Origin: an uncultured virus (IMG/VR IMGVR_UViG_3300010002_000006)
Lineage: Duplodnaviria; Heunggongvirae; Uroviricota; Caudoviricetes
Virus record (IMG/VR): IMGVR_UViG_3300010002_000006
Coordinates: 124,001-188,000 of that record
DNA: 64,000 nt
Reading direction: 5' to 3' (one strand)
The notes beneath the pieces were generated by a model. That model was not told where the DNA came from and did not search any database. It saw only the letters and a program-made list of their open reading frames with translations. The position numbers were made by a program, and so were the translations under genes. Of the stretch, positions 43,996 through 51,330 are shown piece by piece (within the stretch, counting starts at the first letter, position 1; the number at the start of each line of letters is the position of its first letter).

Positions 43996-44433
43996 TTAGC
44001 CCAAACTTACCTGAACTGGATCTGAAGTAACCTTAACTGCCCAGGTTCCCTTGATATCGTAAATGCGTTCAGCTGACCAGAATTTAACGGTGTAAGATTC
44101 CGTGTTTCCTTCCCAGTCTACTGTCACCTCAGTATAGCTCTGGGTTTTGGCATAGTTTCTGAGCCAGACCACAAAGTCCTGTAACTGGTGTGTGCTGATA
44201 CTGTTGGATTTAAGATAGAGACTATTGAGTCGTTCTTCGACCACCATGATAAACCGGGATTCCAAAGAACCCGTAATCCAGACCTGGTTCTTTTGTTTGT
44301 ACTGCTTTTGTTTCTCAACCCAGTTGTCATGATAACGCTGCAGCGCAGGCAGGATGTAACGTCCCAGAACAAACCCTAACAAAAAGGTCAACGTTCCAAT
44401 AATTAACAGGTTGGTTATTTCTACAGTGATCAT
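43996..44433 (-). CDS. Predicted membrane-anchored protein
   Basis: N-terminal TM LLIIGTLTFLLGFVLG. Confidence 0.7.
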   Translation of the reverse strand: MITVEITNLLIIGTLTFLLGFVLGRYILPALQRYHDNWVEKQKQYKQKNQVWITGSLESRFIMVVEERLNSLYLKSNSISTHQLQDFVVWLRNYAKTQSYTEVTVDWEGNTESYTVKFWSAERIYDIKGTWAVKVTSDPVQVSLG

Positions 44434-44563
44434 AATAGCCTCTAAGTAAAAGACACTAACGAATAAGGATACTCACTTCGTTCGTTAATATATTAGTAAT
44501 TTCCTTTCGGAAGGTAGACCGGATCAGACCCCTACCCCTAACAGATAGGAGTAGGAGTAAGAA

Positions 44564-44890
44564 TTAATTTGAAAGCTGCTTTAAGATATCTTCAACAATC
44601 TCATCGGTGATGATAGGGTTGTCGTAAGAATAGATAATCTTCTTTTTGAGGGGATGAGAAACATATACTGTCAACTCACAGCGACCCATCTCCAATACCG
44701 TCCGATCCCCACCGTTGATCTTCGCCATCATAAAACCGGCACCGGTGGTGATGTTGAAAGTAATGCCTTTGACCGTGAGATCAAATTTGCTGCGCATCAC
44801 CTTCATCGCCAGGATATCGTTCAGCATGATCCGAAACGCAATCGCCTGTTTGGACCAGTGGCTGAGCTGTTCTTCACGAAGACGTGTCAT
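44564..44890 (-). CDS. Hypothetical protein
   Basis: 108 aa; AGGAG RBS, ATGA overlap. Confidence 0.7.
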   Translation of the reverse strand: MTRLREEQLSHWSKQAIAFRIMLNDILAMKVMRSKFDLTVKGITFNITTGAGFMMAKINGGDRTVLEMGRCELTVYVSHPLKKKIIYSYDNPIITDEIVEDILKQLSN

Positions 44891-45264
44891 TTGGTCTCCT
44901 TGGCATGCCCCACCAGTTTGTCCATGACTTCTTTGATCATGATCTCCAGATCAACGGGATCAGGCACTTCGCAGAGTTTGACCCCTTTGTTGATTTTGCG
45001 CAGCAGGTTACAGTTCACCGCGTCAAAGATCTCATCGAGCTCAATGTCGAGAACCTCTTCGTACTTCAGGATCTCATGGTAGATCCTAAAATAGTCCAGG
45101 TGGATAACTTCTTTGGTTCGGGATTTTGCACCCGTGAATCTTGGTTTACGAGACATGTGTCTCTCCTTGTCGGTATTGTTGGAGCGAGTCCAAGAGTAAT
45201 AAGCCAGGCAGGCAGTAATCCCACCCAGCACAAAGAGTGCAAGTATGCAGAGAACGATTTTCAT
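44887..45264 (-). CDS. Predicted membrane-anchored protein
   Basis: N-terminal hydrophobic helix; possible internal start MSRKP after AAGGAGAG. Confidence 0.65.
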   Translation of the reverse strand: MKIVLCILALFVLGGITACLAYYSWTRSNNTDKERHMSRKPRFTGAKSRTKEVIHLDYFRIYHEILKYEEVLDIELDEIFDAVNCNLLRKINKGVKLCEVPDPVDLEIMIKEVMDKLVGHAKETK

Positions 45265-45878
45265 TAGATCTCGAAAATGTCGGAGAGCTTAACCGGACCG
45301 TTATCCCCGTGAATGGAAACGATCTGACCGTTCTTAATGACGCCATCATATTGTACAAAGCGACCGTTTTTCTCGACGGTGACTTCGAACAAGGCATCAT
45401 AAGTTTGAGTGTGGCGATGCGTGAAGGTCACTTTGTAACCATCACTGTATTGCAAATCATTGCCACTTTGCTCACATGCACGCTGCAATCTTCTCTTGAT
45501 ATCCTTCGCTGCCATCAAACCAACCACACTGTCCACAATGCGGCCAAGTAAGTTAAAACGCTCATTCATACTTTCAGTAATATAAAAATAGAAATCGTAT
45601 GATTTGAGCTCGCACAACAGGAATCGCAAAATCCCCTCTTTAGGACGGGTGTAAGCGATACGTCCTTTACTTTCAATCGCAAACGTGTACATTCTGATGT
45701 CACGGTTGACAATGAATTCGATGCACGCGACTTCGATGCCGTTCATGCTCATGTCTCGCAACGAACCAGGGTTGGCACGGGTTACGCGAACTGAGTTAAT
45801 GGTCAGGTACTCGCCGAGTTTGGTAGCGAACTCTGCACGAATCGCGTCTAAGTTCAGTGGTGTGGTTTCTAAGTTCAT
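45264..45878 (-). CDS. Hypothetical early protein
   Basis: 204 aa; first gene after promoter motif at 45924..45931. Confidence 0.7.
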   Translation of the reverse strand: MNLETTPLNLDAIRAEFATKLGEYLTINSVRVTRANPGSLRDMSMNGIEVACIEFIVNRDIRMYTFAIESKGRIAYTRPKEGILRFLLCELKSYDFYFYITESMNERFNLLGRIVDSVVGLMAAKDIKRRLQRACEQSGNDLQYSDGYKVTFTHRHTQTYDALFEVTVEKNGRFVQYDGVIKNGQIVSIHGDNGPVKLSDIFEI

Positions 45879-45913
45879 GGTGGATCCTCTAAATTAAAAT
45901 AACTGCGTTAAGT

Positions 45914-45942
45914 ATACACTGTGATAATATCGGCTTAATTAA
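45914..45942 (-). promoter_or_regulatory. Putative phage early promoter
   Basis: TTAAGCCGATATTATCACAGTGTA. Confidence 0.6.
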
Positions 45943-46643
45943 TTATAAGCTCTTTTATTTTATGTAATAAAACGCTTACTTATTTTCATCTCTGATGAGA
46001 TAAGAGACACTTGCTGTGGTGTCTCTGCTTTTTTATAAGCATTCTTACGAGTGTTTATAAAGAAGTATGTTCGCAACGTGCTTCTTGTGCCTTGGGCATG
46101 TAGTAGGGTTTTCATCATCGCTAACAAAGTGGAAGGGGTCCGCCAATCTCTTCCGCTTTCTTTAAAGGTATTCTTGCGAGTGTCTTTAAAGAAAGCATGG
46201 GGGCGTGCTTTCAATTCTGGCTAGCTGTTCTGTTGTACTAACTAAAAGGGAGTGAGTTGGTCTTACTTTTCCTCCACTCACTCGCCTTTTTATTTCTCTA
46301 TGTCTATTCCCTGAGTAGCTATAAAGAAATAACATTGCGCTCAATGCTGTTTCTGGATTTGTTATCATACTTGTATGGATTTGCCTTCTATTAGGCAGGG
46401 GTTCAACGACCCCTTCTTTCAATGCATATTAACCAATGTATATTGCAAGAATTTTCCTGTTGTAACTAGTAGGCTTTACCTGTTCCGAATCCATTCGGGG
46501 CGGCTAAAACTATTATGCTGTTTGTCGTAAAAGATTATTCAGATATTTATAGTCTGAGCAAAGTAGTCGCCTGCGGTAATTTCCCTCTCTTGTCCTTCGT
46601 GGAGGAAGAGCGAGATCCAGGAGGGAAAGCAACAAAGTTTTAT

Positions 46644-47192
46644 TCTCCCATAGTTCAGTTGGTAGAACGAGGTAAAGATCATGGCAATGAGGGATTTAAA
46701 GATCCTTTTCGATAGCATAGTCTCTGATCCTTCTTCGGGCTGCTGGAACTGGACTAAGAGTACTCGTGAAGGATATGGTCAAATCAAAGTTGGCGATATC
46801 CACTGGACGACACACCGTTATGCTGCAACAGCTATTTATGGTGAGATTCCGAAAGGGATGGTCGTTAGACATTCCTGTAATAACCGACGGTGCTGTAATC
46901 CTAATCACTTAAGCATCGGCAGTCACCAGGATAATTGGGAAGACTCTGAAGTAGTTCACAGAGAGAACACCGATAAGATGAGAAAGATGAGAGGTTGGAA
47001 CATAGACGGTGTCTGTTATCCATCTTCTCGAATCGCTCATCAGAAAACTGGCATTTCGATGGCGAGCTTAGTCAAGTATACTCAATCTGGTATATTCGAT
47101 ATAGAAACGTATCGGAAGAATTGCGAACGCCAGGGTAAAGTTCCCAAAGTCTGATCCGTATGTCGCAAGTTCGAGCCTTGCCGGGAGAGCCA
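46644..47192 (+). pseudogene. tRNA-Asn-derived gene split by an HNH endonuclease ORF (5' half 46644..46669, 3' half 47155..47192)
   Basis: TCTCCCA TA GTTC AGTTGGTA GAAC G ... TCCGT ATGTC GCAAG TTCGAGC CTTGC CGGGAGA GCCA. Closely parallels enterobacterial tRNA-Asn; anticodon loop and 5' anticodon strand are missing. Confidence 0.8.
46681..47154 (+). mobile_element. HNH homing endonuclease
   Basis: CWNW...GYG...THR...VRHSCNNRRCCNPNHL..GSHQDN (HNH_3/His-Cys type). Confidence 0.9.
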
Positions 47193-47194
47193 AA

Positions 47195-47295
47195 TTACAT
47201 TCACACGCAGTTGGGGTACAATAGACCAGGGGCGCTTTTGCGACCATACCTGGGATCCACTTCCCACCTACCAGCATAAGGACGTGTGGATGTAA
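47195..47295 (+). ncRNA. Structured ncRNA candidate
   Basis: 13-bp closing stem TTACATTCACACG/CGTGTGGATGTAA with nested CCAGG/CCTGG and CGC-TTTT-GCG; fills the gap between two tRNA genes. Confidence 0.55.
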
Positions 47296-47301
47296 CCTTT
47301 T

Positions 47302-47391
47302 AGAGAGTTGGATGAGCGGTTTAAGTCACCTCCCTGCTAAGGAGGCGTATCAGTAATGGTACCGAGGGTTCGAATCCCTCACTCTCTGCCA
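47302..47391 (+). tRNA. tRNA-Ser(GCT)
   Basis: AGAGAGT/ACTCTCT acceptor, CCTCC-CTGCTAA-GGAGG anticodon arm, long variable arm, GAGGG-TTCGAAT-CCCTC, encoded GCCA. Confidence 0.95.
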
Positions 47392-47394
47392 AAT

Positions 47395-47481
47395 ATCGGG
47401 ATAGTCTATTTAAACTTAGTGTCGGAATTCGACGGCGGATACGTCCGTAAGGCTATGTAGGTTCGAATCCTACTCCTGATA
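47395..47481 (+). ncRNA. tRNA-like RNA (acceptor + T arm, non-canonical core)
   Basis: ATCGGGA/TCCTGAT acceptor, GTAGG-TTCGAAT-CCTAC; internal hairpins GTCG/CGAC and GCGGA-TACG-TCCGT. Confidence 0.65.
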
Positions 47482-47489
47482 ATAAATAT

Positions 47490-47593
47490 GCGGTTATGTC
47501 TTTAGGGGCATCGTAAAGGTACGAAAGTGGATGATTAGTTTCTACCACTGGATAACTTTACAGTAGTCAGGTTAAATCCCTGTGGCCGCGCCA
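47490..47593 (+). ncRNA. tRNA-like RNA ending in CCA
   Basis: GCGGTTA/TGGCCGC-GCCA acceptor; variant T arm CAGG-TTAAATC-CCTG; three internal hairpins. Confidence 0.55.
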
Positions 47594-47602
47594 AATTTTT
47601 AT

Positions 47603-47740
47603 GGGGGTCGTGTCGTGGGACACAAGTTCGGTTATGCTCTAGCGATCGAAGATCGTGAACCCATTAGCGGTGAAGATAGACAACTCTACTTTAACTGTAC
47701 TGAACGATAAGCCGAGTTCGACTCTCGGGACTGTCTACTC
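47603..47740 (+). ncRNA. tRNA-like RNA candidate
   Basis: Perfect T arm CCGAG-TTCGACT-CTCGG; weak acceptor GGGGGTC/GACTGTC; hairpins GTGTC/GACAC and CGATC-GAA-GATCG. Confidence 0.4.
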
Positions 47741-47759
47741 ATTTCATAAGGAATAGGTT

Positions 47760-47897
47760 ATGGATTTTGATTTAGATGATTTAGAGATCACCGGTCTCGA
47801 TGAAGCTGAAGCGCGTAATACCGAGCGTCTGAACGAAGCGGATGCAGCTGCTGCGGCAATTGGCGATGAAGCCGACTGCGAAGGTTGTAAGATCTAA
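47760..47897 (+). CDS. 45-aa acidic peptide ending in a CxxC motif resembling the NrdA C-terminal tail
   Basis: MDFDLDDLEITGLDEAEARNTERLNEADAAAAAIGDEADCEGCKI; TAAGGA RBS; below the track cutoff. Confidence 0.75.
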   Translation: MDFDLDDLEITGLDEAEARNTERLNEADAAAAAIGDEADCEGCKI

Positions 47898-48003
47898 TTT
47901 TTACCTGTCAGTATGTTTTAAGATGGACCTGTTTTAGCAACACAAAAATAATGCATTGGCTGCCAGTTGGATAACCAGCGGTAGATCAAGGCAACACCCT
48001 CTT

Positions 48004-48081
48004 AGGCGGGTAGCTCAGTCTGGTAGAGCGCCGTGGGGTACACTCCCACACCTGTCCGTGGTTCGAATCCACGCTCGCCTA
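48004..48081 (+). tRNA. tRNA-like gene with aberrant anticodon arm (undetermined/pseudo-tRNA)
   Basis: Canonical acceptor AGGCGGG/CTCGCCT, D arm GCTC-AGTCTGGTA-GAGC and T arm CGTGG-TTCGAAT-CCACG; loop GTACACT lacks purine-37; no CCA. Confidence 0.65.
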
Positions 48082-48346
48082 AACTTTTTAATTCGTTAGC
48101 GGAGATTCCAAATGAGTATGGCTTACCCTTCAGAGTTTAAACACGCGCACTCCCAGCCTTGTATGGTCGTTGAAGTTCTCGTTCAACCTTCAACCATCTG
48201 CCAGGCATCTGTTTGTGATCAAGAGTCCAAAGCGGCTCCGTCATTAAACATTATGGGTAGTAGCATCGTGCCGTCGCAGTCTTGTAGCGACAGACTCAGA
48301 AGTTTTGGTATTTGATTGACACGGCTCTACTGTTTAGGAAACATGC

Positions 48347-48622
48347 ATGAAAATCGTTATTTACGGTCGACCTGGTTGCCCGTACTGCGTTAAAGCTCAC
48401 GATCTCTGCCAGGCCAAAGCCCTGGACTTCGAATACATCGATTATAAAGATGTAGGTCTAGAGAAAGCAGATCTGGAAAAGATCGTTGGCAAGCTGATCA
48501 CCACTGTTCCCCAGATTCTGGTTGACGGTGTTCCGATCGGCGGTTTCACCGAATTACAGCAATACCTTCTGGACCTACAAAGCGAAGATCCTCTGGATAC
48601 GGACGATCTCGGCGGCATTTAA
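48347..48622 (+). CDS. grxA: Glutaredoxin (Grx1-like)
   Basis: YGRPGCPYC, TVPQI, IGGFTEL. Confidence 0.93.
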   Translation: MKIVIYGRPGCPYCVKAHDLCQAKALDFEYIDYKDVGLEKADLEKIVGKLITTVPQILVDGVPIGGFTELQQYLLDLQSEDPLDTDDLGGI

Positions 48623-48642
48623 CTGACAACGGCGGTGAACCC

Positions 48643-48786
48643 ATGAAAATCAAGAAGAAAAGTATCTCTCTGAAAGAAAAGATTCGCCGCCTTAATCAGA
48701 ATGCAGAAAAACCGCTGTACCTGGATGGGGATGGTGATACTTTCACTATGACCAAAACCAAAGATGGGTACCGGCTAAACCAGTAG
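48643..48786 (+). CDS. 47-aa basic hypothetical protein
   Basis: MKIKKKSISLKEKIRRLNQ...; follows grx; below the track cutoff. Confidence 0.5.
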   Translation: MKIKKKSISLKEKIRRLNQNAEKPLYLDGDGDTFTMTKTKDGYRLNQ

Positions 48787-48843
48787 GGTCTCTGACCCTA
48801 TTGTATTTTTTTGTCTTCAACTACCGTATATTATGTAATTCAA

Positions 48844-49473
48844 TCGAATGTAGCTGTTTGCAGCCCTGAGGGGCGGCTTGGTTATGTTACCTCGTTATAT
48901 TCGACTGTAAGACCCTTGTTATCCAGGTGTGGGAATATAACAAGGGCAATACCCGGTAACTTGCAGTGCCGGGTTAAATCCAAGTAAGACCGGCGACCGT
49001 TATCTCGCTATCCGTTGAGCTTGGTGGGCAATGCAGTGAGCTGACCTCAGCTGCGTCATAGCAACGCGACTAAAGAGAAGTCCCCCTATCGTCTAAGCTT
49101 AAGACACCTCGACTTAATTGTTGGGGGAAATCTGAGATGAACCCGAAACACTCAATTGGGGGCAAATATAAAATATCTTTAGTAGTGGGAAAGTTGTGCC
49201 CTTTCCTGACAATAGTATGAAAATATTATTGTCAACCTCTTTGTACCGGTGGCTGATATCCAAGTAGAGCTTTAATTATACCTGACGGCATAGCGCTCAA
49301 AGTGAACAACCATTGGTACATCCTCTTGAGGGTCTTGAACGAGAACCGTAGACAGATCCACCGAGCGCAACTACGTCGCATATAAAGGTGGAATTAGCAG
49401 GGGACTAGCGAGTCATCCTGGGTGATATCAAGATCCTCAACCTTATCTACTCTCCGTGATATGGAGTGGATAC
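48844..49473 (+). ncRNA. Array of structured RNA modules, including a degenerate tRNA-like element at about 49080..49165
   Basis: No credible ORF; back-to-back 10-13 bp closing stems with G-U pairs (48844..48904, 48913..48946, 49207..49234, 49242..49320, 49326..49440). Confidence 0.5.
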
Positions 49474-49488
49474 TCTCCTGGTGGAGAA

Positions 49489-49585
49489 CGTCGTACCATC
49501 TGATGAGTCCTGCGACGGTAAAAAATAATGGGGACGAAACGGGTTCTGCAGAAGGGGTCTCCAAACTCTGAGCAGATCCGTCATG
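49489..49585 (+). ncRNA. Hammerhead ribozyme (type I topology, pseudoknotted)
   Basis: CTGATGA (49500..49506), stem II GTCC/GGAC, GAAAC, stem III ACGGG(T)TCTGC/GCAGATCCGT, GTC cleavage triplet (after C49582), stem I CAT/ATG, loop II TGCGACG pairing with 5' CGTCGTA. Confidence 0.8.
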
Positions 49586-49842
49586 AATCGCTCCGCCCTA
49601 ACTGTGAGGAGCAGCCTCAGTCTACGATTCTAGAGGAACAACAGCGTCGCCTGCAGGGGACCATTGGCAAATGGGATCTTAAGGTTGGCAAACAGTCCGC
49701 TCCTTTTGCCAGAGGAGAAGTTGTCAAAACCAAGAGGTGTAGACAGCCTTTAGACCACTGTAATGATGAATCGGGGTTGCTCCCGTAGTAACCACCACCA
49801 GTGATCTTTAGGGTGTTTACAAAAATAATAAATAGATAGAGA

Positions 49843-49872
49843 CCCTCTACTCTCCGTTAGGAGAGTAGAGGG
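49843..49872. terminator. Terminator hairpin (CTCTACTC family) closing the RNA island
   Basis: CCCTCTACTCTCC/GGAGAGTAGAGGG; T-rich runs on both strands. Confidence 0.8.
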
Positions 49873-49883
49873 AATCTTTTTTA

Positions 49884-50282
49884 TTAGTTTTCTAAAGTCA
49901 GTTCATGCCAGACTTTATACAGACGATCCATGTCATTATACAGTTTACCTAATGCTACTGTATTTTTCAGATTACCTGCGTAACACCAGAGTTCGCATTT
50001 AGGCTCGCCCTTCAGTATAATGTCGTTGAAATACATCACGACGGATTTAGCTGAGGTTGCAATCAAATCTTTGCGGTTAACCGCAAAAGGAAACTCGTTA
50101 GAATCATCGATCACGTTGCAGCAGTAAATAAATAATGCTGCATCGAAGTCGTTAATATCGAACCCATGTTCTTCGATCAAGCCGAACCGACGGGTTTCAA
50201 TTGCGGAGCTAACCACATCTAACTTAACCAGAGATCCATCAGCAGTGATCATTGACAGGTTACGTTTGAAAATATTTTCCAT
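49884..50282 (-). CDS. Hypothetical early protein
   Basis: Start MENIFK after GGAG; promoter motif at 50329..50336. Confidence 0.7.
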   Translation of the reverse strand: MENIFKRNLSMITADGSLVKLDVVSSAIETRRFGLIEEHGFDINDFDAALFIYCCNVIDDSNEFPFAVNRKDLIATSAKSVVMYFNDIILKGEPKCELWCYAGNLKNTVALGKLYNDMDRLYKVWHELTLEN

Positions 50283-50319
50283 GTTATTCTCCAATAGATT
50301 AAGAACATTATTGTTCATA

Positions 50320-50346
50320 TATACTTAAATGATATCGGTCTGAAAT
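50320..50346 (-). promoter_or_regulatory. Putative phage early promoter
   Basis: TTTCAGACCGATATCATTTAAGTA. Confidence 0.65.
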
Positions 50347-50472
50347 GGAATGTGACTAAACCATACTCTATTTGATCATATGAGCTCGTTTCATTCACAG
50401 CCAGGACGGTTGTTAATGAGACTCCTTTGCGGTCATTGTGACTCAGAGGCTATTTCGAAATAGAGGTAACAT

Positions 50473-51330
50473 ATGAGTTTAAGTTCACCCGTTGATTTTG
50501 CGATCAACTACGTCATTAACGGTCCCACTGATATCAGCGAGTATTTGCTGAAGCTTGCCTTTACGCCCATTAACAATGGCTATGGCGGACCCTGGGGATC
50601 GATCAACACCGAGTTCTCTATTGAACAAGGCCTGCGTGATAAAGTCATCAACAAAATGGTGGCTCCCCTGTTACAGGTGGCAGGTGGTCAAACAGAAACC
50701 ATCGATCTTAGTGGTGCACATATTGAGAACCTGGCAGGCGGTATGATCTGGGTAAACGTACCCGATTTTCTGACCGGCGGTCGTCGCATTCTGGAAGTGG
50801 TGGAAGTCTATCCGGGGAATATGACTCAGAACATCGTGGGCGGTCAACTCTCTGGCGGTGGTGGTATTGGTTGCAGTCCTGGCGCCATTGCCGGCGGTTT
50901 AAGTCGTTTGCTGAATAACCTGGATGATTCACAGGTTACCCGAAGCTTCACAAGCTTTACCCCGGTAGGTCCAAACTCCTTTATTATCCGTGATGCCAGT
51001 TCAGTAATGTTCAACATGGTGGCCAAGGTGATCTTGTCATATGACGAGAATTTCTCTGGGGTTCCCCTGAAGATGTTTGACAAGTTCGCAGAACTGGTTG
51101 AGTTGGGAACCAAAGCCTACATCTATAAGACCTGTCGCCGTGGCATGCAAGAAGCCGTCTCTCGTTTTGGCGTTACCGTTGACGATGTGCAAGATGACAT
51201 CCAGGGGTACTCAGATGCTGCGCAGCAGTTCAGAGAGTTCTACAACGAGAAGATGAAGAAGTATATGGCGTATGCTGATGCCAAAGGCAAAACCGACTCC
51301 ATTAAAATGATGGTACCAAGGAAGCGATAA
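50473..51330 (+). CDS. Conserved hypothetical, probably virion/late protein
   Basis: 285 aa; GAGGT RBS; plus-strand operon. Confidence 0.6.
   Translation: MSLSSPVDFAINYVINGPTDISEYLLKLAFTPINNGYGGPWGSINTEFSIEQGLRDKVINKMVAPLLQVAGGQTETIDLSGAHIENLAGGMIWVNVPDFLTGGRRILEVVEVYPGNMTQNIVGGQLSGGGGIGCSPGAIAGGLSRLLNNLDDSQVTRSFTSFTPVGPNSFIIRDASSVMFNMVAKVILSYDENFSGVPLKMFDKFAELVELGTKAYIYKTCRRGMQEAVSRFGVTVDDVQDDIQGYSDAAQQFREFYNEKMKKYMAYADAKGKTDSIKMMVPRKR

Follow-up and report, generated by a model that had tools for sequence, protein, structure and literature searches.

An HNH endonuclease gene inside the tRNA-Asn gene of an uncultured phage: probable homing without an intron

Homing endonuclease genes usually spare their carrier by residing in introns, inteins or intergenic DNA. 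Group I introns occur in the anticodon loops of bacterial tRNA genes and can carry an endonuclease ORF. Closest to the locus described here are free-standing endonuclease genes in phage tRNA clusters. In its passages on bacteriophage T4, PMC2330249 presents SegB as a free-standing GIY-YIG family endonuclease, which is encoded in the tRNA cluster, recognises a T-arm motif and prefers a site within T2L's tRNA-Asn gene. Its discussion also suggests that tRNA processing at the stop codon of segB influences expression of the gene. The same source, where it turns to T5, places the ORFs of F-TflI, F-TflII as well as F-TflIV in the phage tRNA gene cluster. PMC5418858 deals, in its parts on the subject, with endonucleases in protein genes. 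In our literature search no paper described a phage tRNA gene that is interrupted by an endonuclease ORF without an intron.

We analysed a window of 64,000 nucleotides, i.e. bases 124001-188000 of the complete, 260,738-bp virus record IMGVR_UViG_3300010002_000006 of IMG/VR with direct terminal repeats. Here the endonuclease gene lies bare inside its presumed target gene, and the sole tRNA-Asn of the phage is removed. We consider it highly probable that a free-standing homing endonuclease gene of the HNH (His-Me finger) type was inserted in the tRNA-Asn(GUU) of this jumbo phage and destroyed its own target.

Anatomy of the split tRNA-Asn gene

The features of the locus are collected in Table 1. 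Direct reading confirmed the arrangement that an earlier note had drawn from the letters: a 5' tRNA half that ends after the D arm with GAACG, an 11-nt leader with a ribosome-binding site, the HNH ORF, and a 3' half that starts one base past the TGA. The GAGG of the putative ribosome-binding site overlaps G26 of the tRNA. D arm, T arm and CCA are present as described, and the two halves pair at six of seven acceptor positions, the single A-C mismatch being A7/C66. The 3' remnant holds the 3' anticodon-stem strand, the variable loop, the T arm (stem paired at 5/5 positions, loop TTCGAGC), the acceptor 3' strand, G73 and the CCA. Because the acceptor strands are complementary at 6/7 positions both halves derive from one formerly working gene. 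The insertion point is the junction of D arm and anticodon stem after G26. With its own Shine-Dalgarno motif and ATG the ORF takes up 474 of the 485 inserted nucleotides.

Table 1. Features of the split tRNA-Asn locus (coordinates of the window)
Feature	Position	Strand	Content or basis
5' remnant of tRNA-Asn(GUU), nt 1-26	46644..46669	+	acceptor 5' strand, nt 8-9, D arm, G26; reads TCTCCCATAGTTCAGTTGGTAGAACG
Putative Shine-Dalgarno motif GAGG, 8 nt before the ATG at 46681; includes G26 of the tRNA remnant	46669..46672	+	sequence
Cassette of 485 nt (leader and HNH ORF) in place of tRNA nt 27-38	46670..47154	+	occupied versus empty sites (Sureiya, Survivor)
Leader, 11 nt	46670-46680	+	sequence
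HNH_3 homing endonuclease gene, 157 aa, intact, TGA at 47152-47154	46681..47154	+	ORF, PF13392
3' remnant of the same tRNA-Asn, nt 39-76	47155..47192	+	reads TCCGTATGTCGCAAGTTCGAGCCTTGCCGGGAGAGCCA
Intact tRNA-Ser(GCU), neighbour; context marker of a small tRNA cluster	47302..47391	+	ARAGORN; Rfam tRNA 52.1 bits

The isotype was settled by the 3' half. In a phage-wide search with at least 80% coverage, all 20 matching phage records (20/20) fell on annotated tRNA-Asn genes. The 5' half alone was isotype-ambiguous with 11 Asn and 7 Gln among the 30 matches listed. A comparison of the halves with 55 ARAGORN tRNAs from the retrieved loci had been indecisive, and the phage-wide search with the 3' half decided the matter.

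Relatives with an uninterrupted tRNA-Asn gene provided the comparison which the earlier note had called for, and it bore the proposed split out. The jumbo phages Survivor (Pantoea; L048:1464-1539, Rfam tRNA 73.7 bits) and Sureiya (Serratia; L049:1464-1539, 70.6 bits) each have an empty site, a tRNA-Asn(gtt) gene with nt 27-38 present, that aligns base for base with the halves. Identities were 21/26 (5' half) and 31/38 (3' half) for Survivor and 20/26 and 31/38 for Sureiya. The T stem is GCAAG/CTTGC in the window versus ACAGG/CCTGT in Survivor and Sureiya, i.e. it differs by two compensatory pairs. By alignment to both genes the loss, which had been put at about 11-12 nt of anticodon strand and loop, amounts to exactly 12 nt (nt 27-38), comprising the 5' anticodon-stem strand and the anticodon loop. 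A script that passed constructs to ARAGORN returned no gene (0) for the joined halves and tRNA-Asn(gtt) when nt 27-38 of Survivor were placed between them. By the 20/20 phage records and this ARAGORN call the match of the halves to tRNA-Asn is not a matter of chance. The allele type of Survivor is host-like: chromosomal tRNA-Asn genes with 91-94% identity to it are present in 5425/5426 E. coli genomes.

Run with default settings, ARAGORN detected no tRNA at the locus; its only calls in the window and the whole genome were tRNA-Ser(gct) at 47302-47391 and a 'tRNA-Cys(aca)' at 48003-48082. No Rfam family for tRNA, tmRNA or introns matched over the locus at E <= 10, and the tmRNA search of ARAGORN returned nothing in the window or the whole genome. 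Neither ARAGORN nor Rfam found a tRNA-Asn elsewhere in the complete genome. The phage is now without any tRNA-Asn, its only copy having been killed by the insertion. Of practical interest for annotation is that tRNA finders overlook such halves when they flank a small ORF in a phage tRNA cluster.

The ORF might instead lie within a self-splicing or enzyme-spliced intron, with the tRNA still being made. With introns allowed, ARAGORN in fact proposed a 'tRNA-Gly(ccc)' with a 466-nt intron that spans exactly 46644-47192. We rejected this call as forced and not credible: it requires an anticodon stem of two Watson-Crick pairs, two G-U pairs and one mismatch as well as the anticodon CCC, and its variable loop has 12 nt. 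Furthermore, 12 nt of exon are absent when compared with the intact genes, thus no tRNA could be restored. The earlier note had seen no room for an intron core, and this held: the group I and group II models gave no match at E <= 10 over 46600-47240 or over 44000-51000. The share of the insert taken by the ORF speaks against an intron as well. We give this explanation practically no credence.

Two further ideas on the insertion boundaries were discarded. GAACG-AGGTAAAG (46665-46677) resembles GAACGCCAGGGTAAAG (47128-47143), but as a target duplication the direct repeat was rejected, as it is missing from the 3' ends of the ORF in three relatives (G001, G002 and N1M2, see below); we treated the resemblance as chance within coding sequence. 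The stop codon and last codons of the ORF do not seem to come from the anticodon loop, because the C-terminus P-K-[VLI]-stop is common to relatives at other tRNAs. A scan for promoters and terminators returned sites no more numerous than in shuffles.

Several unusual elements lie downstream. Just past the 3' end of the tRNA-Asn, 47207-47285 is a conserved non-coding element that contains an invariant hairpin, CCAGG...CCTGG, as well as a GGG/CCC helix and also occurs in Survivor, G001, N1M2 and Edwardsiella phage pEt-SU. At 47395-47481 there is a conserved tRNA-like element (Rfam tRNA 31.5 bits). Its acceptor measures 6 bp and its long-range helix 7 bp, the T arm is canonical, and the tetraloop of the hairpin GGCGGA-UACG-UCCGU occupies the place of the anticodon loop. 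N1M2, Shewanella phage SXP01 and Serratia phage Moabite carry the element at 87-93% identity, and 10/10 matching records leave it unannotated. Another unannotated stretch, 47598-47749, may encode a structured RNA of ~135 nt that has a T-arm-like hairpin close to the 3' end; among four sequences, compensatory changes affect 12 of the 44 predicted pairs, and identity is 91-95% in G002, 89% in pEt-SU and weaker in Survivor. The odd 'tRNA-Cys(aca)' at 48003-48082 (Rfam tRNA 42 bits), with A34 and with a pyrimidine as base 37, lacks the CCA and overlaps a weak match to YrlA (Y RNA-like, E 0.93). Finally, 49485-49545 gave a sub-threshold match to Hammerhead_3 (18.4 bits, E 5) with the core letters CUGAUGA and GAAAC, which is most likely due to chance.

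The endonuclease and the sites it occupies

The ORF product matched PF13392 (HNH_3) over residues 44-85 with 49.1 bits against a gathering cutoff of 24.8 (E 4e-13) and HNH/endonuclease families of PHROG with a best E of 3.7e-28. Seven family sequences share 45 invariant columns. A search of PDB sequences with the family profile returned nothing significant (best E 0.1). The AlphaFold model from a shallow alignment was mediocre with a mean pLDDT of 67, the C-terminal 50 residues reaching 75-88. The top five PDB fold matches of this predicted model were I-PpoI and I-HmuI, all of them weak with E values of 7e-3 to 2e-2.

Four lineages are occupied at the same left junction: the window, the two IMG/VR phages G001 (locus L025, 266,753 bp) and G002 (L026, 270,936 bp), and Klebsiella phage N1M2 (L002). 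The orthologous endonucleases of these other three jumbo phages, G001, G002 and N1M2, are 56%, 57% and 52.9% (tblastn) identical to the window protein. In all three relatives the D arm ends with GAACG, 9 nt follow to the ATG, and GAGG or GGGA stands at the equivalent Shine-Dalgarno place. Searches of IMG/VR and metagenomes with a left-junction pattern revealed no further occupied sites, only G001 (in both collections) and G002 again; another match, in L058, was a chance match inside a coding region and was discarded.

The right side differs between the lineages. In G001 the 3' half has decayed: its T loop is non-canonical, acceptor pairing is 4/7, and TCA stands instead of CCA. Across the whole genome of this phage the tRNA model of Rfam had 0 matches at E <= 0.1. 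In G002 and N1M2 a complete tRNA-Asn(gtt) starts on the base right after the endonuclease stop codon (Rfam 66 and 64.3 bits, respectively), and its acceptor does not match the 5' fragment. We refer to this tRNA-Asn of different sequence as the second type. Among phage records only N1M2 has it at full identity, the next-best match being 80%; by a 23-nt pattern G002 is alone in IMG/VR, and the second-type anticodon arm had no exact match in the genome collection. The window phage represents the bare form, without a compensating second tRNA-Asn.

Between lineages the endonuclease DNA is 60-65% identical; for the window against G001 and G002 the values are 62-63% and 70% over the best-aligned 328 nt. 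For the genes in the flanks, DNA identity of the window to G001 and G002 is 65-84%. Because the endonuclease genes have diverged about as much as the flanks, vertical inheritance of one old insertion is possible. The divergence would be compatible with repeated homing, too. The 5' fragment of N1M2 matches the intact Sureiya gene at 25/26 positions and the preceding 75 nt at 72/75. In G001 an endonuclease close to that of G002 (92% aa identity) resides in a Sureiya-like flank, and the acceptor strand GCTTCCA is a chimera between GCTCATG and TCTCCCA. The endonuclease, acceptor strand and flank of G001 are suggestive of biased inheritance with co-conversion at most.

Two observations concern the N1M2 record. 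The RefSeq CDS PQB72_gp256 (L002:2330-2917) starts 120 nt too far upstream and runs through the 5' fragment of tRNA-Asn; the start homologous to that of the window is the ATG at L002:2450. Hence tRNA halves can also be swallowed by over-long CDS calls. Upstream of tRNA-Asn, a non-coding stretch (L002:2213-2414 / L049:1119-1463) is nearly identical in N1M2 and Sureiya, phages of different genera. It is also present in G001 and absent from the window and G002, and could represent a further conserved RNA or a piece of DNA that was exchanged recently.

The endonucleases of G001 and G002 differ at 12/157 residues, with dS 0.40, pS 0.31 and dN/dS 0.08. The endonuclease is intact and, judged by these rates, under purifying selection. 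Its wider subfamily is found at tRNA genes. Among the full-length relatives (at least 130 residues aligned) ARAGORN placed a tRNA at a distance of at most 150 nt in 7/11 and within the available flanks in 9/11, versus a nearby tRNA in 4/35 relatives that share the HNH part alone. By eye, nine of the eleven full-length relatives have a same-strand tRNA or tRNA 5' fragment shortly upstream of the start codon. Bacterial genomes contributed 20 loci, in which the match lay within residues 7-145 at most and nearly always in the HNH part, and 0 full-length relatives.

The earlier note had suggested a search for other tRNA halves that bracket HNH ORFs, and tRNA fragments were indeed seen, by eye, beside the ORF in five relatives. 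Centimanus has an intact tRNA-Met, the ORF and a Met-like 3' fragment directly past the stop. In KpLz-2_45 a tRNA-Arg-like 5' fragment that ends after the D arm precedes the ORF, and in PS1 the order is tRNA 5' fragment, ORF, tRNA-Met. Both L028 and L029 show tRNA-Arg, ORF and a short 3' fragment.

The fate of the two tRNA halves

The 5' fragment is unusually well preserved. Its nt 8-26 are identical at a minimum of 18/19 positions among the four occupied loci and at 17/19 to 19/19 positions against the two intact genes, as compared with 60-65% for the endonuclease DNA. Between G001 and G002 there are 0/19 differences in nt 8-26 and 2/26 in the whole fragment versus a synonymous-site difference of 31% in the adjacent ORF. 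Binomial estimates for these counts are ~8e-4 and ~5e-3, respectively. By these estimates the 5' fragment is conserved beyond neutral expectation, and its contrast to the 3' half is genuine. For an old insertion, neither the near-perfect halves of the window nor the strongly conserved 5' fragment would be expected of a neutral scar.

Tentatively, selection may keep the 5' fragment, be it as part of the ribosome-binding region or mRNA 5' end, as a homology arm for homing or as an autoregulatory half-site; this would be compatible with the homing explanation. The conservation just described points in this direction, as do the overlap of GAGG with G26 and the tRNA or 5' fragment ahead of the start codon in 9/11 full-length relatives. 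Autorepression by I-TevI speaks in favour of a half-site. On the other hand, repeated homing into an intact tRNA-Asn, or conversion from one, would also keep the fragment fresh, and the chimeric acceptor of G001 points to exchange with intact genes. A hairpin over the Shine-Dalgarno motif and AUG was unconvincing with 7 pairs, -4.7 kcal/mol and 1 compensatory pair. The excess conservation could mean that the element needs part of its target for expression or spread.

As its second reading the earlier note had offered a tRNA-capped mRNA of tmRNA-like topology. The tRNA ends would be functional: a 549-nt transcript, released from that of the cluster by RNase P and 3' processing enzymes, would pair its ends as an acceptor/T-arm module that stabilises the endonuclease mRNA or regulates it. 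All parts of such a module are intact in the window, namely acceptor (6/7), T arm (5/5, with canonical loop), G73 and CCA. Both the MFE and the centroid fold of 46644-47192 predict a terminal helix of 6 bp, with a z-score of -3.6 for the whole RNA; yet the ends of the fold were chosen in advance, thus this helix is partly built in. tmRNA precursors are substrates of RNase P despite their large insert, which would suit such a transcript. The T4 segB gene, for which PMC2330249 considers an effect of tRNA processing at the stop codon in the passages concerned, offers a parallel. Against these points, end pairing is retained in only one of the four lineages. G001 is left with 4/7 pairs, a degenerate T loop and TCA, and in G002 and N1M2 the 3' side is an unrelated full tRNA, the acceptor of which fails to match the 5' fragment. 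Neither tmRNA nor tRNA models gave a match, and the ORF has its own Shine-Dalgarno motif and ATG. The identity pair for alanine is G3-U70; position 3-70 of the window is T-A, not G-U. Asn identity requires the anticodon, which is missing here. Given this state of the 3' half in the three relatives, the proposal is without comparative support, and we regard it as improbable. There is likewise a slim chance that a 549-nt RNA with a tRNA-like cap stabilises or throttles the selfish message, in which case the conserved 5' fragment would be the part that is always needed.

The arrangement in G002 and N1M2, i.e. 5' fragment, endonuclease and complete tRNA-Asn, could also be taken for the half-way stage of a different history. 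In this account no insertion into a tRNA took place. The ORF was flanked by tandem tRNA-Asn genes, and of these two deletions left nt 1-26 in the upstream and nt 39-76 in the downstream copy. However, the downstream tRNA of G002 and N1M2 is of a different type with an acceptor that does not fit the 5' fragment. Nothing is duplicated in the window, where 12 nt are missing and the complementary halves stand in exact register, so that two independent deletions would have needed luck. We consider this history very unlikely.

Intronless homing that destroyed its own target, the first reading of the earlier note, is thus the one we favor. The gene encodes a nuclease that belongs to a family of homing endonucleases, has no intron, and is present or absent at the same site among relatives. 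Support comes from the empty sites of Survivor and Sureiya, a left junction common to four lineages, the intact endonuclease under apparent purifying selection and the occurrence of its subfamily in tRNA clusters beside fragments. The enzyme would recognise and cut or nick the uninterrupted tRNA-Asn of co-infecting relatives near nt 26-39. The break would be repaired by recombination from the endonuclease-bearing genome, whereby the gene is copied in, and the insertion, by removing the recognition site, would render the carrier immune. Presumably the gene shares the transcript of the tRNA cluster, and its translation begins at its own GAGG-ATG. Both remnants of the tRNA would then be a scar, fresh in the window and decayed or overwritten in the relatives. 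For G002 and N1M2 it is probable that the lost function is supplied by the different, intact tRNA-Asn next to the stop codon, and that this tRNA gene is not cleaved.

The relatives offer a readable series of intact target, fresh split, decayed split and split compensated by a second tRNA-Asn. Thus the life cycle of a tRNA-targeting homing element may be read from sequence alone. In addition, the intact and the split alleles form a concrete pair of substrates for the enzyme.

Comparison with described systems

In tmRNA, as conceivably in the RNA of this locus, 5' and 3' ends pair into an acceptor/T-arm module around a coding region. Unlike tmRNA, the locus has no model match and no G3-U70, encodes a full enzyme with its own Shine-Dalgarno motif and ATG, and its end pairing is not kept in relatives. 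With group I introns of tRNA genes it has in common that a mobile element interrupts the anticodon region; in contrast to them no ribozyme was detected, and 12 nt of the exon are deleted. The likeness to I-HmuI and I-PpoI (PDB 1u3e, 1evw) would lie in the catalytic HNH/His-Me fold. These were the best matches of the predicted model over 118-138 aligned columns, yet weak ones with E 7e-3 to 1.4e-2 and a TM of about 0.3 at a model pLDDT of 67. I-HmuI and I-PpoI are both intron-encoded, while the window gene is without an intron.

The F-Tfl enzymes, which we take to be members of the HNH family, provide a parallel as endonuclease ORFs in a phage tRNA cluster. The window has a split tRNA; none is reported in the F-Tfl passages of PMC2330249. 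As far as the passages on SegB go, SegB too is a free-standing endonuclease gene in a phage tRNA cluster, and its target is the tRNA-Asn of relatives without the gene. Moreover, the end of the SegB ORF abuts a tRNA, so that tRNA processing touches its mRNA, which resembles the situation here. Yet SegB is a GIY-YIG enzyme directed at a T-arm motif and lies between tRNA genes, whereas the window gene is of the HNH_3 type, sits at the D/anticodon junction and has both halves of the split tRNA in place. Measured against what the source reports of SegB and F-Tfl, the difference is that here the endonuclease gene interrupts the tRNA gene itself, both halves of which are readable, and has no intron.
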